Source: Escherichia phage vB_EcoM-ZQ3
Length of the DNA: 64,000 nt
Direction: 5' to 3' (one strand)
Sequence record: MW630116.1
Positions 8,280 to 44,273 of the stretch are shown piece by piece. Every line of letters begins with the position of its first letter. Position 1 is the stretch's first letter. A model generated the notes under the pieces. That model did not search any database, was not told where the DNA came from, and saw nothing but the letters and a program-made list of their open reading frames with translations. Position numbers and translations under genes: made by a program.

Positions 8280-8544
8280 TGTTATTCTTTCTAAAGACCT
8301 TAAAGAGGTTATCAACAAAGGATATATGGAACTCGCGGAAGTTGAGATATGAGCTCTAAAATGTGGATAGGAATATGGTTGCTTAGTATCCCTATGATTT
8401 GTATAGTATTTTCAATTGTATTGAGGTACTTATGAAAAATGCACTTATTATTGTACTAAGAACAATTTGTGATACGGGTTTTTACATCGCATGTTCGTTC
8501 ACTGGAACATGGTTGGCTTTAACATATTTTAATGTAATTTAATT

Positions 8545-8602
8545 GTTTACAACAAGGTAGGATTATGGTATAGTAGTCCTACTGAAACATGAGGAACACA
8601 AA
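8545..8602 (+). promoter_or_regulatory. early promoter cassette with 9-bp dyad (gtaggatta / tagtcctac) around the -10
   Basis: gtttacaacaaggtaggattatggtatagtagtcctactgaaacatgaggaacacaaaATG. Confidence 0.55.
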
Positions 8603-9326: not shown

Positions 9327-9378
9327 TTTATACGGGCCTATTAAGTTAGGCCTTTAATTTATTTTTGAGGTAATTAAA

Positions 9379-9528
9379 ATGGTAGCATGGATTATTGCAT
9401 TGCTGTGTTGGTCGTTTTTATTCGTTAACACTTTAGTTACAGGCGAAACAACAGTATTTCAACAGGCTGTGTCACAAGGTACCTTAGCGGTCTTAGCTCT
9501 TCTTAACGTATTAAAAGGCGAGCAATGA
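9379..9528 (+). CDS. small hydrophobic membrane peptide (49 aa)
   Basis: ATG 9379, TGA 9526-9528; MVAWIIALLCWSFLFVNTLVTG...; not in ORF track (under 60 aa); position resembles T4 ac/ndd.x small ORFs. Confidence 0.35.
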   Translation: MVAWIIALLCWSFLFVNTLVTGETTVFQQAVSQGTLAVLALLNVLKGEQ

Positions 9529-9665
9529 TTAAGAAAATCTTAGCAGGAGCCTTCGGGCTCTTGTTTTTGCTTACGGTTCTGTACTACGGTGTGATGTTTG
9601 GGCTAATCCAAGTAGTGCTTTTCATTTCAGATGTTATAATGGTTATTCGTTCATTAATATGGTGA
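9525..9665 (+). CDS. small hydrophobic membrane peptide (46 aa)
   Basis: ATG 9525 overlapping previous stop (ATGA); MIKKILAGAFGLLFLLTVLYYGVMFGLIQVVLF...; ends 4 nt before gene 52. Confidence 0.35.
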   Translation: MIKKILAGAFGLLFLLTVLYYGVMFGLIQVVLFISDVIMVIRSLIW

Positions 9666-9669
9666 AAAT

Positions 9670-40516: not shown

Positions 40517-41509
40517 ATGTTACCTGTCATCAGAAAACTTATTTCTCCAAAAGAACTGGCTGAGATTATTCCTTTGTCGGAAGCTTACGCATCACAAGTG
40601 GCTTCTCATCGCGAACAAGTTAATTCGATTATGAACGGTGAAGACCCACGCAAACTTATTGTTGTAGGTCCTTGTTCAATTCATGACCCTATTGCTGCTG
40701 TTGAATACGGCAAACGTCTGGCTGAACTTCAAACTCGTCTTCCTAATGTTCTGTTAGTGATGCGCGTTTATTTTGAAAAGCCTCGAACTACCGTAGGTTG
40801 GAAAGGTCTTGTAAATGATCCATATCTTGACGGAAGTTTTGATATGAACCACGGTCTTATAGTTGCACGAACATTGTGTCGTAAACTTCTACGTATGGGA
40901 CTTCCATTAGCAACTGAAGTATTAGACCCATTCACGATTAAGTATCTTTCTGGTATTTTCTCATGGGTTGCTATTGGCGCCCGTACGACTGAAAGTCAGA
41001 CACATCGTGAAATTGCTTCAGGTCTACCGATGTGCGTAGGCTTCAAGAACGCAACCAATGGTTCTATTAAAGTAGCTACAGACGCGATGTATAGTGCCGC
41101 CTGGCCTCATCGGTATATGGGTATGGACGTCGATGGTACTGTAGGCATTGTTGAAGCTGAAGGTAATCAGAATACGCATATCGTATTGCGTGGCGGGACT
41201 AACGGCCCGAACTATCATTCTTCTGATATTCAAGAAGCTTCTAACAAAGCAAGTGCATTAGGTCTGAATCATTATGTAATGGTTGACTGTAGCCATGCAA
41301 ACGCTGATGGGTATTATAGCAATCAAATTGGTATTGGTAAAAATTTAGCAGCTAATGATTTGGTCAAAGGAATTATGATAGAATCATTCCTACATGAAGG
41401 AAATCAAAAAATTTCTGATAATATGTCCTATGGCGTTTCCGTTACCGATGCGTGCATCGGTTGGGAACAAACTAAAGAGCTGTTAACTTATATTAATAAG
41501 GTTCAATAA
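40517..41509 (+). CDS. 3-deoxy-D-arabino-heptulosonate 7-phosphate (DAHP) synthase, class I alpha (AroG/AroF/AroH-like)
   Basis: 330-aa ORF with canonical motifs aligned to E. coli AroG as I recall it: VVGPCSIHDP, MRVYFEKPRTTVGWKGL, IGARTTESQTHRE, VGFKN, DCSHAN, ESFLHEGNQ, TDACIGWE; stop overlaps cd start. Confidence 0.9.
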   Translation: MLPVIRKLISPKELAEIIPLSEAYASQVASHREQVNSIMNGEDPRKLIVVGPCSIHDPIAAVEYGKRLAELQTRLPNVLLVMRVYFEKPRTTVGWKGLVNDPYLDGSFDMNHGLIVARTLCRKLLRMGLPLATEVLDPFTIKYLSGIFSWVAIGARTTESQTHREIASGLPMCVGFKNATNGSIKVATDAMYSAAWPHRYMGMDVDGTVGIVEAEGNQNTHIVLRGGTNGPNYHSSDIQEASNKASALGLNHYVMVDCSHANADGYYSNQIGIGKNLAANDLVKGIMIESFLHEGNQKISDNMSYGVSVTDACIGWEQTKELLTYINKVQ

Positions 41510-42090
41510 TGAAAGCTAGCACATATCTTCAAATTGCTTATTTGATTTCTCAAGAATCAAAATGTTGTTCATGGAAAGTTGGTGCCGTCATTGAAAAAGA
41601 TGGACGCATTATCTCTACTGGATATAATGGCTCACCCGCAGGTGGCGTTAACTGTTGTGAACATGCATCCGAAAATGGTTGGTTGAAGAATAAACCAAGC
41701 CCGGTCATCGTTGCTGGACATAAAGAAGGCACTACAGCATTTGGACGGGCAGATAATTTTGTTTTGGCTAAAGAACATCGGGCCGCTCATAGTGCATGGT
41801 CTGCCAATAACGAAATCCATGCGGAACTGAATGCAATTTTGTTTGCAGCTCGTAAAGGTAATTCTATTGAAGGTGCTACGTTATATACTACGCTTTCTCC
41901 ATGTCCTGATTGCACTAAAGCTATTACGCAGTCAGGTATTAAAAAGGTTGTATATGCAGAATTATATGACCGATCTCCTGAAAATTGGGCAGACATTCTT
42001 AAACAAGCTGGTATTGAAGTAATTCAGTACTCTCGTAATAATCTTCGTTCTCTGAATTGGGAACAAATCCGAAACTTTTGTGGTGAATAA
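41509..42090 (+). CDS. cd: dCMP deaminase
   Basis: 193-aa ORF (T4 Cd 193 aa) with zinc-binding deaminase motifs HAELNAI and SPCPDC. Confidence 0.88.
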   Translation: MKASTYLQIAYLISQESKCCSWKVGAVIEKDGRIISTGYNGSPAGGVNCCEHASENGWLKNKPSPVIVAGHKEGTTAFGRADNFVLAKEHRAAHSAWSANNEIHAELNAILFAARKGNSIEGATLYTTLSPCPDCTKAITQSGIKKVVYAELYDRSPENWADILKQAGIEVIQYSRNNLRSLNWEQIRNFCGE

Positions 42091-42091
42091 T

Positions 42092-42388
42092 ATGATTTTA
42101 ACTGAACAAGAAACTATGGTTCTTCGTGAACGTATTAAAACTATTCTGTCTGTAGGCGTTCATTGTGTTGTATTTGAAAAGGCTAACGGTGATGTTCGTA
42201 CGATGTTTGCCTCCCGTGATGAACTTGAAGTCAAATACGAAAATAACAATCCGGCAACAGAAGTTCGTTATGAACCTCGTGAATCAGTTCGAGCATTCGA
42301 TACCAAGTTAGGCCAGTGGCGTTCTTTCCGCCTTGATAAAGTAATTTCGGTTGATGGTACTCCGGTAGAACGTTTGCTTCTTATGTAA
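42092..42388 (+). CDS. hypothetical protein (98 aa)
   Basis: ATG 42092 inside ORF-track entry 42080..42388. Confidence 0.5.
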   Translation: MILTEQETMVLRERIKTILSVGVHCVVFEKANGDVRTMFASRDELEVKYENNNPATEVRYEPRESVRAFDTKLGQWRSFRLDKVISVDGTPVERLLLM

Positions 42389-42445: not shown

Positions 42446-42778
42446 ATGTCTGAAGTACAACTCCCAATTCGTGCTATTGGTGAATATGTCATTCTGGTTT
42501 CTGAACCTGCTCAAGCAGGTGATGAAGAAGTTACCGAATCAGGACTTGTGATTGGTAAACGTGTTCAAGGTGAAGTTCCTGAACTATGCGTAGTTCATTC
42601 TGTAGGTCCTGATGTTCCTGAAGGTTTTGTTGAAGTAGGTGATTTGACTCCACTACCAGTTGGACAAATTCGAAATGTTCCACATCCATTTGTGGCTTTG
42701 GGACTTAAACAACCTAAAGAAATTAAACAGAAATTCGTAACATGCCACTATAAAGCTATTCCGTGTCTTTATAAGTGA
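42446..42778 (+). CDS. 31: gp31 co-chaperonin (GroES-like) for capsid folding
   Basis: 110-aa [45 protein letters not shown]...[14 protein letters not shown], matching T4 gp31 as I recall it. Confidence 0.9.
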
Positions 42779-42779
42779 T

Positions 42780-42787
42780 ATAAATAA
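42780..42787 (+). promoter_or_regulatory. late promoter TATAAATA upstream of rIII
   Basis: gtgatataaataac; followed by hairpin gaagagaacactcttc. Confidence 0.5.
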
Positions 42788-42902
42788 CTATATGAAGAGA
42801 ACACTCTTCTAAGCGGTAGCCTACAACTGAGAGACTTGTCGAAAGAAGGTGAAATTCAGACGAACGTGGCTACTAAATATTATCTCGAATTGAGAATTTA
42901 AA

Positions 42903-43151
42903 ATGATTAAACAATTACAACACGCTCTTGAACTGCAACGCAACGCATGGAATAACGGTCACGAAAACTATGGCGCATCTATTGATGTTGAAGCCGAAGC
43001 TCTTGAAATCCTGCGTTATTTCAAACATCTGAACCCAGCACAGGCCGCACTGGCTACTGAACTGGAAGCAAAAGATGAACTGAAATATGCTAAGCCTTTG
43101 GCTTCAGCAGCTCGTAAAGCAGTACGTCATTTTATTATTACCCTGAAGTAA
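42903..43151 (+). CDS. rIII: rIII lysis inhibition accessory protein
   Basis: 82-aa ORF MIKQLQHALELQRNAWNNGHENYGASIDVEAEALEILRYFKHLNPAQ..., matching T4 rIII (82 aa) as I recall it. Confidence 0.9.
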   Translation: MIKQLQHALELQRNAWNNGHENYGASIDVEAEALEILRYFKHLNPAQAALATELEAKDELKYAKPLASAARKAVRHFIITLK

Positions 43152-43516
43152 GTTAAATCGAGGAGCCGTCGAACTGTCTGATTAATGATTTGCGAATCAT
43201 TATAGTTTTAAGACCCCGGCAGTTTTACGGTGTACCTCTTGAATGTTATTCTTATAGCGGCAAGTGCATGCTACCCCGAGGTGATGGCCAATCGGGAGTA
43301 CGCCTCAAGGCCTATATATCCATCAGTATATATCTTATCCTCGAGAAATCGAACCCGGAACCTTTAAGCTAACGGTGTGCAACAGATAAGAGCTATAAGG
43401 TATGATGACGGGTTTATGGTTATCCTGTCGTTAAATATCCGAAAACCTATGTTCCCCTTGAGGGCTTGCGCAGGCAATGTCAATAAGTCCTGCATTTTCA
43501 TTAAAGAGAATTTATA
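43152..43516. other. ORF-poor, relatively GC-rich intergenic region (about 365 nt) of unknown function
   Basis: No convincing ORF in any frame; contains hairpin taatgatt-tgcg-aatcatta (43183-43202); atypical for this otherwise tightly packed AT-rich genome. Confidence 0.5.
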
Positions 43517-43696
43517 ATGGCAAAACAAGCTAAAGCAAAGAAAGCAGTTGAAAAGAAAGTTGATGGTACCTCTAAACGCGCTGGATACAAGCGTGGGTCG
43601 AACTCTCGTATTAATCAAACAGTTGAGAAGATCATGCGCAGAGCACGTGCAGTTCTTCGAGATGATGCTTCTCGTTTTGGAAAGGTTGTTGCATAA
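43517..43696 (+). CDS. small lysine-rich basic protein (59 aa), tentative
   Basis: ATG 43517, TAA 43694-43696; MAKQAKAKKAVEKKVDGTSKRAGYKRGSNSRINQTVEKIMRRARAVLRDD...; followed by a strong terminator; an alternative overlapping frame (43548..43733) exists. Confidence 0.4.
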   Translation: MAKQAKAKKAVEKKVDGTSKRAGYKRGSNSRINQTVEKIMRRARAVLRDDASRFGKVVA

Positions 43697-43701
43697 TTTT
43701 A

Positions 43702-43724
43702 GGGAGACTTCGGTCTCCCTTTTG
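43702..43724 (+). terminator. rho-independent terminator (gggagacttcggtctccc + T-run)
   Basis: Identical hairpin to the one at 27707; followed by ttttgtgcgttt. Confidence 0.65.
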
Positions 43725-43756
43725 TGCGTTTAGGGCAGAAAAAGTTTAAAAAAGAT

Positions 43757-43827
43757 GTTTACTCTCCTGTAGGATGTGTTACTATAGACTTGTACCACCT
43801 AATCAATAAAAACAACCGGAGAATAAA
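43757..43827 (+). promoter_or_regulatory. early promoter cassette (GTTTAC ... tactatag ... ggagaataaaATG)
   Basis: gtttactctcctgtaggatgtgttactatagacttgtaccacctaatcaataaaaacaaccggagaataaaATG. Confidence 0.5.
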
Positions 43828-44203: not shown

Positions 44204-44273
44204 GTTTACTTTGGTACAGGTTATGTTATTATAGACCTGTACCAACAAACAACTTAAACATCTGGAGAATAAA
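44204..44273 (+). promoter_or_regulatory. early promoter cassette with perfect 8-bp dyad (ggtacagg / cctgtacc)
   Basis: gtttactttggtacaggttatgttattatagacctgtaccaacaaacaacttaaacatctggagaataaaATG. Confidence 0.6.

Follow-up and report, generated by a model that had tools for sequence, protein, structure and literature searches.

Comparative genomics has uncovered orphan structured RNA motifs in phages and bacteria that are intergenic, conserved, supported by covariation and of unknown function at discovery (Weinberg et al, 2010, PMC2864571; Weinberg et al, 2017, PMC5737381; Fremin et al, 2023, PMC10690425). Here we describe a phage-borne element with the same properties in a 64,000-nucleotide (nt) stretch of Escherichia phage vB_EcoM-ZQ3 (MW630116.1; hereafter the window), a T4-like (Tequatrovirus-type) phage. 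The element, module B, is a 149-nt cassette in the gap between rIII and the homologue of gene 30.9 (Table 1). It differs from the described motifs in that it matches none of the 4,227 models of Rfam 15 at E ≤ 10, and it apparently represents an undescribed RNA family within the orphan structured RNAs of phages. The main text of Fremin et al (2023) mentions neither T4-like phages nor rIII; a listing in its supplement is possible.

Among the non-coding RNAs of T-even phages, the stable RNAs rnaC and rnaD of T4 (species 1 and 2) resemble the cassette in being small (119-139 nt) and of unknown function. They differ in lying within the tRNA cluster and in having a tRNA-like 3' part, and T4 possesses rnaC and rnaD but not the cassette. 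Homology was rejected, as a covariance model of the cassette gave only noise over the T4 tRNA/rnaC/rnaD region (best 6.9 bits) and BLAST detected no similarity. A different parallel is offered by the purine riboswitch, the extended hammerhead and the VS ribozyme, in which parallel helices are joined by a loop-loop interaction beside a multi-way junction. As in these RNAs, the invariant nucleotides of module B lie in junctions and internal loops, and a closing helix makes the unit portable. However, the cassette combines a four-way junction with a nested three-way junction in its 149 nt, and has no sequence or covariance-model similarity to them, no expression platform and no known cleavage site.

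T4-type phages reportedly also carry "promoter-early stem-loop" (PeSL) cassettes, a finding attributed to Arbiol and colleagues in 2010. Like module B, these are short non-coding modules shuffled among intergenic sites, and one such unit is located at 43702-43790 of the window. PeSLs consist of a simple hairpin with a promoter and occur in many copies per genome, whereas the cassette is single-copy and promoterless, adopts a complex tertiary structure, and keeps its sequence across genera and phage families. Phages additionally use RNA decoys against host defence, such as the pseudo-ToxI of type III toxin-antitoxin systems and RNA anti-CRISPRs. These share with the cassette their occurrence as patchy, horizontally acquired non-coding RNAs of virulent phages, but they mimic host repeats. 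The cassette lacks the internal direct repeats of type III antitoxins and pseudo-ToxI, shows no resemblance to any of 5,426 complete E. coli genomes or to PLSDB plasmids (host mimicry is thus rejected at the BLAST level), and had no match in an exact-pattern scan of 185,579 GTDB species genomes.

The gap that contains module B is made up of three RNA-structure modules, A, B and C, lying end to end, with borders defined by alignment with T4, the Mosigvirus phage 55 and the Klebsiella Jiaodavirus Mineola. An earlier note, made from the letters of the window, had pointed to the roughly 365 nt after rIII as an unusually long, relatively GC-rich region and had proposed a structured non-coding RNA, a long regulatory leader, or the decayed remnant of a mobile element or homing endonuclease gene. 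The first proposal holds strongly for the discrete cassette at 43251-43399, which the note had not delimited; the hairpin that it highlighted (43183-43202) belongs instead to the simpler module A, which is also found in T4. The gap is indeed less AT-rich than its surroundings (42.5% GC against a window mean of 37.8%, standard deviation 2.8), a value reached by 4.8% of 365-nt windows, and the GC excess is confined to module B (47%), both flanks having 39%.

Alignment of the rIII-to-30.9 interval with relatives, the check proposed at the time, revealed abundant compensatory changes and no pseudogene remnant. RNAalifold, applied like the coding test to 22 distinct copies of module B, predicted 39 pairs, and compensatory changes occur in 17 of these. 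A kissing helix and the outer helix P0 were added to this model by inspection, and three RNAalifold pairs within the P2 loop (core-alignment columns 23-33, 24-32 and 26-31) gave way to the kissing loop. The full model, evaluated on 32 distinct flank-inclusive variants, comprises 48 pairs with 95.9% of cells paired, compared to 30-44% in slid controls. Double compensatory changes affect 26 of the 48 pairs, against 11.5 ± 1.6 in shuffled alignments, and none of 500 shuffles reached any of the five measures used. The core alone reaches 99.0% paired cells with 19 of 41 pairs covarying. Compensatory changes beyond chance are the hallmark of a conserved structured RNA, and we regard it as almost certain that module B is a real family of this kind.

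The fold is organized around a four-way junction of P0, P1-P2, P3 and P4 with single-nucleotide linkers, in which P0 closes the cassette. P0 is formed by 4-8 nt on either side of the core and pairs in all 33 flank variants despite its changing sequence (UAAA/UUUA in Klebsiella phages, AAACAG/CUGUUU in the podovirus PKM.Lu.22.1, AUAUUA/UAGUAU in EcS1, and others); its inner four pairs are 91-100% paired and every one of them covaries. In arm 1, P1 and P2 flank a nearly invariant internal loop with AAGUGCAU (AAG-GCAU, 43262-69) on one side and CUCAAG (43304-09) on the other, and P2 contributes five pairs with double changes (97-98% of cells paired). The P2 loop contains GAUGG (43283-87), which forms a 5-bp kissing interaction with CCAUC (43320-24) in the loop of P3. 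This helix is paired in 100% of the 32 sequences and clamps P1-P2 and P3 side by side. It is replaced by AAUGA/UCAUU in Cronus and EcS1 and by UAUGG/CCAUA in two other phages, such that the kissing helix and P0 each show at least three pair types. The unpaired strands AAG-GCAU, GCUAA (43368-72) and GCAACA (43379-84) are nearly or fully invariant. Two further pairings were considered and discarded: an H-type pseudoknot GAGGYG/CGCCUC, the bases of which are taken by P2, and a UGCA/UGCA pairing of the 5' internal loop with J6/4, in which both strands are invariant and which conflicts with a covarying P6 pair.

Several features identify module B as a plus-strand RNA. G-U combinations outnumber A-C combinations (58 versus 12 cells), the U-G pair of P3 is present in 30 of the 32 sequences, and the orientation agrees with that of the genes. 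The same features tell against a DNA-level element, i.e. a recombination or insertion hotspot, an origin or a single-stranded DNA structure, since a covarying loop-loop pairing and an orientation that always matches transcription come in addition to this asymmetry. The polymorphic insertion site with its three alleles (see below) and the ability of inverted repeats to act in DNA would fit such an element, which we nonetheless consider very improbable.

Module B shows no sign of encoding a protein. In all six frames of the 22 copies, stop codons occur in essentially every sequence on both strands, variable sites are spread over the codon positions without bias (26/21/21), and lengths differ by single nucleotides; a conserved open frame and a third-position bias are thus both absent. 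The conserved coding frame by which the earlier note would have been refuted was accordingly looked for in the comparison and not found. For the same reasons, the hypothetical coding sequences (CDSs) of 44-49 amino acids annotated over the cassette, for example CPT_Mineola_216 and COW86c_228, are spurious. Those placed over its flanks look like annotation artefacts, as does a feature in the rIII-30.9 interval of KMB38, HY126 and EC101 that is labelled "1,4-alpha-glucan branching enzyme, GH-13-type". The gap as a whole is free of credible open reading frames (ORFs), as the earlier note had it: it contains only mechanical ORFs of 45-60 amino acids on the plus strand and an 84-amino-acid ORF on the minus strand that overlaps 30.9, and no gap ORF has a PHROG or Pfam match at E ≤ 1, including any residual GIY-YIG, HNH or LAGLIDADG similarity. 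The proposed decayed homing endonuclease or mobile element consequently has neither protein similarity nor a frame in its favour, yet the cassette does behave as a horizontally exchanged unit.

The covariance-model search suggested by the earlier note placed the cassette in no Rfam family, even when 171 nt were searched alone; the self-cleaving ribozyme models were among those without a match at E ≤ 10. A 1.2-kb search was equally empty in the gap, and no gathering-threshold match was obtained across the whole window. ARAGORN reported no tRNA or tmRNA in the window, and the cassette is not tRNA-like, its kissing loop joining arms 1 and 2 rather than D- and T-like arms. A terminator scan gave no terminator-like site within the cassette, where P0 is followed by GUAUGAUGA. 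A promoter directly upstream was considered and rejected, because the A/T-rich -10-like bases are a strand of P0 and are not conserved as a promoter.

BLAST located module B in 407 phage records at 408 places, hence essentially once per genome, and the covariance model built from the family found a single copy in the window. By host name, the records belong to phages of Klebsiella (161), Escherichia (130), Shigella (27), Enterobacter (27) and Yersinia (18), as well as Salmonella, Citrobacter, Serratia, Raoultella, Erwinia and others. The carriers are virulent Tevenvirinae of Enterobacterales, plus one podovirus. Because 567 Escherichia phages match some part of the gap, module B is a minority allele among them. 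In the 40 Tevenvirinae copies fetched, it lies between the rIII and 30.9 homologues and on their strand in every contig that is long enough to include them (a few short contigs end before one of the genes), and in Moonvirus, Roskildevirus and Karamvirus it begins only 11-22 nt past the rIII stop codon. Exact-pattern scans added 17 IMG/VR contigs and 14 metagenome contigs, T4-like wherever their flanks suffice for assignment. Four looser patterns yielded only two more T4-like copies; their remaining matches, mostly GC-rich, were rejected by the covariance model as chance. A truncated copy in Klebsiella phage vB_Kpn_AM.K1 (UNVERIFIED_ORG, 100-kb record, 1190-1270 of the stretch examined), in which the gene 31 coding sequence is fused to the 3' half of the cassette, was set aside as most likely a misassembly and not a natural allele.

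Identity to the cassette of the window is 95.6% in Mineola and Merlin, 85% in PS49 and 81% in Cronus (81-96% across genera), whereas DNA identity between the same phages is 66-77% for rIII, 30.9 and gene 31. In Mineola, where the cassette is about 95% identical in the module alignment, its flanks are otherwise unalignable. The segment missing from T4 and phage 55, approximately 43247-43399, corresponds to P0, core and P0 plus the four linker bases 43247-43250. At the insertion site, GAATGT | GTATGATGA (43246/43247 and 43399/43400), at least three alleles occur. The window has the 149-nt cassette, whereas T2, HX01 and phage 55 have an insert of about 45 nt and the site is empty in T4. The shorter insert, TACTATCATGCGTCAGAAAAGTGTTATCTGTGTAAGTCTTGGTG, is unrelated to module B.

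The podovirus copy extends this picture beyond the Tevenvirinae. PKM.Lu.22.1, a podovirus of the Grimontviridae (7-11-like, 76 kb) with no relation to T4, carries a copy of module B with 85% identity. In its 98%-identical sibling PKM.Hi.22.6 and in phage 7-11, exactly the P0-bounded cassette is absent, which marks a clean insertion in PKM.Lu.22.1. Within positions 723-2294 of the stretch examined, the stop codon of an SSB-like gene (PHROG 6599, with an acidic ...DDDCPF tail) precedes the cassette by 8 nt, and the intrinsic terminator of that gene (CCCCUCUUCGGAGGGG followed by a U-run) lies downstream of the cassette; the next gene encodes an ECF sigma factor (PHROG 1740). As this copy differs by 15% from all sampled T4-like copies, its donor lineage is unsampled. 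The insertion and deletion alleles of module B are clean, and at the level of these aligned alleles it has been gained or lost as a precise unit. However, it has no encoded protein and no clear target-site duplication, and its terminal inverted repeat is the RNA helix P0. Since two unrelated contexts agree, module B can be described as a 3' untranslated region (UTR) passenger that is co-oriented with transcription and has a variable downstream gene, and it is probably an autonomous module that is independent of its neighbours.

On balance, we favour the explanation, with moderate confidence, that module B is a new, horizontally exchanged family of functional RNAs with a partner-binding or catalytic core, a function that we infer from its conservation and structure. 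The cassette would be transcribed together with the upstream gene, forming the 3' UTR or an intercistronic segment of the rIII-30.9 mRNA, and would act as a folded RNA in its own right, irrespective of the flanking genes. Because its invariant junction strands are held by the kissing loop and the GNRA hairpin, they suggest a specific binding pocket or an active site. In the first case, a specific partner, either a small molecule or a protein of the host or the phage, would be bound in a pocket made by the invariant nucleotides of junctions and loops, the RNA serving for example as a decoy or sponge that aids infection of Enterobacterales. All carriers infect Enterobacterales, and the partner is therefore possibly host-directed. 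We put forward this non-catalytic mode, with its hypothetical partner, tentatively, at somewhat under an even chance. Alternatively, the pocket would be a catalytic site. A bolder version, in which the cassette is the founding member of a new functional RNA class, either a new self-cleaving ribozyme or a high-affinity aptamer or decoy of virulent Enterobacterales phages against the host, and spreads as an autonomous RNA "gene" between the unrelated families Straboviridae and Grimontviridae, appears possible but unlikely; such an aptamer or decoy would target a host factor, e.g. a defence protein or signalling molecule.

Several points weigh against a functional RNA family of this type. Transcription of the cassette is predicted from its orientation and covariation, and its binding partner is putative. 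In Tequatrovirus, the AU-rich hairpin and U-tract of module A precede the cassette and could reduce read-through into it. Single-sequence folding energies are no better than those of shuffled sequences (z = -0.75 for the core and -1.42 with P0) and are significant on neither strand; the case for module B is therefore comparative, and many of the 32 variants behind it are closely related. Module B is missing from T4, T2 and the majority of T-even phages of Escherichia, and it is accordingly dispensable in laboratory hosts. Recent horizontal spread, and not constraint, could account for part of the high identity across genera. Lastly, full-text literature searches with sequence strings and for structured RNAs of T4-like phages retrieved no description of the element, although an unnamed entry in the supplement of a candidate-motif catalogue is possible.

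The strongest competing explanation gives the core a specific catalytic task. A self-cleaving ribozyme or RNA-processing module would cleave the rIII-30.9 transcript at a defined position, splitting the upstream message from the downstream one or releasing itself. The compact closed fold with its multi-way junction, loop-loop clamp and invariant internal-loop and junction nucleotides would suit this role, this pattern of conservation being typical of hammerhead, hairpin and VS ribozymes, and the intergenic, patchy, phage-borne and cassette-like distribution resembles that of small phage ribozymes. Nevertheless, the cassette matches no Rfam ribozyme model (see above), exceeds most self-cleavers in length and displays no readable cleavage-site signature, and we judge this explanation rather improbable.

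A cis-regulatory role, in which a riboswitch-like aptamer or a protein-binding operator would control the translation or termination of 30.9, fares less well. The cassette lies upstream of 30.9 in every Tevenvirinae copy, its architecture with a closing helix is aptamer-like, and module C downstream offers a hairpin and a U-rich run ahead of the ribosome-binding site. Among complete copies, however, anything from about 73 to about 176 nt separates the cassette from the 30.9 start. Full conservation of module C and 30.9 is also seen in T4 and in Mosigvirus phages that lack the cassette, and in PKM.Lu.22.1 the cassette is followed by the terminator of the upstream gene and then by the sigma-factor gene in place of 30.9. 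Moreover, no conserved alternative pairing links the cassette to downstream sequence, a single 7-mer shared with module C being at chance level. By its spacing and contexts, the cassette thus lacks the coupling of an aptamer to an expression platform for a downstream ORF that defines a riboswitch, and regulation of 30.9 seems to us improbable.

Slightly less probable still is a passive element, a bulky stable fold that would block exonucleases or insulate cistrons and would need no specific partner. It would fit the 3' UTR position directly after a stop codon in both contexts, and the adjoining modules A and C are simpler structured elements of such a kind; but invariant unpaired strands, a covarying kissing loop and 81-96% identity exceed the needs of a nuclease barrier, a role filled by ordinary hairpins elsewhere in the same genomes. 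Least probable of all, with hardly any weight, is that module B codes for a small protein or is a pseudogene left by a decayed homing endonuclease or mobile element. The CDSs in public records and a short likeness of module A to 30.9 (see below) might be cited for this, but it conflicts with the stops in all frames, the absent codon-position bias, the 1-nt indels and the empty PHROG and Pfam searches. A share of the total probability is given to none of these explanations.

The two flanking modules are, by comparison, ordinary structured UTR elements. Module A is common to T4, T2 and HX01 and is probably a stability element or hairpin at the rIII 3' end, or a weak terminator. Its stems GAGG..CCUC, GCCGU..ACGGU and GAACUGUC..GGCAGUUU enclose the perfect 8-bp hairpin that had been noticed earlier, which is present as described (43183-43190 with 43195-43202, loop TGCG in DNA and UGCG in RNA), together with the U-rich tail UAGUUUUAAG that follows this hairpin. 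The fold has a minimum free energy of -25.9 kcal/mol (z = -2.6; 4 of 200 shuffles are as stable), and in HX01 compensatory changes are present in the inner hairpin, where T-A has become C-G, as well as in the outer stem, where C-G has become U-A. Module A is located between rIII and the cassette in Tequatrovirus and some Mosigvirus, and is absent in Moonvirus, Karamvirus and Roskildevirus. A 19-nt stretch of it (43168-43186) matches a segment of the 30.9 coding sequence (within 43597-43624) with 84% identity (p ~0.004 by shuffling), which may be the trace of an old partial duplication or chance (p ~0.004-0.01). In addition, 14 of the 15 nt at 43172-86 are complementary to 43610-43624 in the 30.9 coding sequence; a long-range pairing between the two was rejected, as it is not kept in HX01.

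Module C is the leader of 30.9, and the long regulatory leader envisaged in the earlier note is plausible for these last 117 nt, though not for the remainder of the gap. It contains a hairpin GACGGG..CCUGUC (43407-43429) inside a longer predicted stem (43403-43433), followed by the motif GUUAAAUA, a mini-hairpin CCC-UUGA-GGG (43455-64, continuing into CUUG), and a hairpin GCAGG..CCUGC (43470-93) that precedes AUUUUCAUU and the ribosome-binding site. All genera examined have module C ahead of 30.9, those without the cassette included, and it is 97-98% identical in T4 and in Mosigvirus phages without module B. The GACGGG..CCUGUC hairpin with the GUUAAAUA that follows it is retained across genera, and EcS1, PS49, Merlin and Cronus possess homologous hairpins with altered sequence in which the pairing is kept. 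In EcS1 and PS49, a mini-hairpin like CCC-UUGA-GGG instead stands upstream of the cassette. The single-sequence fold of module C, taken alone, is not significant (z = -0.17). Module C may be a second conserved RNA element of the gap, one that regulates 30.9.

The genes around the gap are arranged as in T4, the order being identical; the rIII-30.9 gap of T4 itself measures 244 nt, and T4 has kept gp30.9 though it lacks module B. The gap of the window is long for a genome in which a gene spacing of 0-80 nt had been noted, but it is not unique, given the T4 gap and the 124 nt that separate gene 31 from rIII (42779-42902). By our reading of the sequence, this shorter gap carries a perfect T4 late-promoter consensus, TATAAATA (42779-42786); its sole Rfam near-match, SNORD127 at E 0.85, is noise. 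The small lysine-rich ORF seen at the end of the rIII-30.9 gap proved to be the gp30.9 homologue. The strong terminator described after it is present as a hairpin with a T-run, and a terminator is annotated at the homologous site of the relatives Mineola and Merlin, but a simple terminator scan did not call it. This hairpin has local matches to the terminator parts of Rfam small RNA models. On its 3' side lies an early-promoter-like sequence, GTTTAC..(17)..TACTAT (about 43758-43788), and the combination of terminator and early promoter at 43702-43790 is an arrangement typical of T4-type intergenic cassettes; a similar second promoter-like site occurs at 44205-44232. Elsewhere, the two longest stretches of the window without an ORF of at least 50 amino acids, 8280-8602 and 9327-9669, contain ORFs of 46-49 amino acids, two of which resemble hydrophobic membrane peptides, and Rfam and tRNA searches of both stretches returned nothing.

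Table 1. Features of the rIII-30.9 locus and elements of the module B fold (positions in the window; all on the plus strand).
Feature	Position	Strand	Basis or details
cd	41509-42090	+	
31.1	42080-42388	+	
Gene 31	42446-42778	+	
rIII (lysis inhibition accessory protein)	42903-43151	+	PHROG 1457, E 2.7e-43
rIII-30.9 gap	43152-43516	+	
Module A, branched long hairpin	43160-43238 (module 43152-43246)	+	Folding and comparison with T4, T2 and HX01
Module B, 149-nt structured RNA cassette	43251-43399	+	Segment absent in T4, covariation, single copy
P0, 5' strand CUUAUAG	43251-43257	+	Pairs with 43393-43399
Arm 1	43259-43312	+	P1 43259-61 with 43310-12; P2 43270-79 with 43292-43303
P3 hairpin, 7 bp including conserved U-G pair	43313-43332	+	4 covarying pairs
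Arm 3, three-way junction	43333-43391	+	P4 43333-39 with 43385-91, 4 covarying pairs
P5 hairpin, GAAA/GNRA-type loop	43341-52	+	3 of 4 pairs covarying
P6	43353-57 with 43373-78	+	Invariant save one A-U to U-A swap
P0, 3' strand CUAUAAG	43393-43399	+	Pairs with 43251-43257
Module C, conserved structured leader of 30.9, 117 nt	43400-43516	+	Conservation across genera
gp30.9 homologue, 59-amino-acid Lys/Arg-rich protein of unknown function	43517-43696	+	PHROG 1427, E 2.4e-31
Terminator-type hairpin GGGAGAC-UUCG-GUCUCCC with U-run	43702-43723	+	Sequence reading

Few viruses have been studied as thoroughly as the T-even phages, relatives of which are commonly isolated for use in phage therapy. Even so, about 400 records of such relatives contain a highly constrained, tertiary-structured RNA that is unannotated or mis-annotated as tiny hypothetical proteins, and it has likely been overlooked because the reference phage T4 lacks module B. 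Genome annotators should stop calling CDSs over the cassette. As it is more conserved than the adjacent proteins and has crossed into a podovirus, module B would appear to have a function that pays in nature. Alleles with and without the cassette exist naturally, in the carriers versus T4 and T2 and in PKM.Lu.22.1 versus PKM.Hi.22.6, and they make this function directly testable. Should the cassette turn out to be catalytic, or a decoy or aptamer, it would represent a new class for phage RNA biology.

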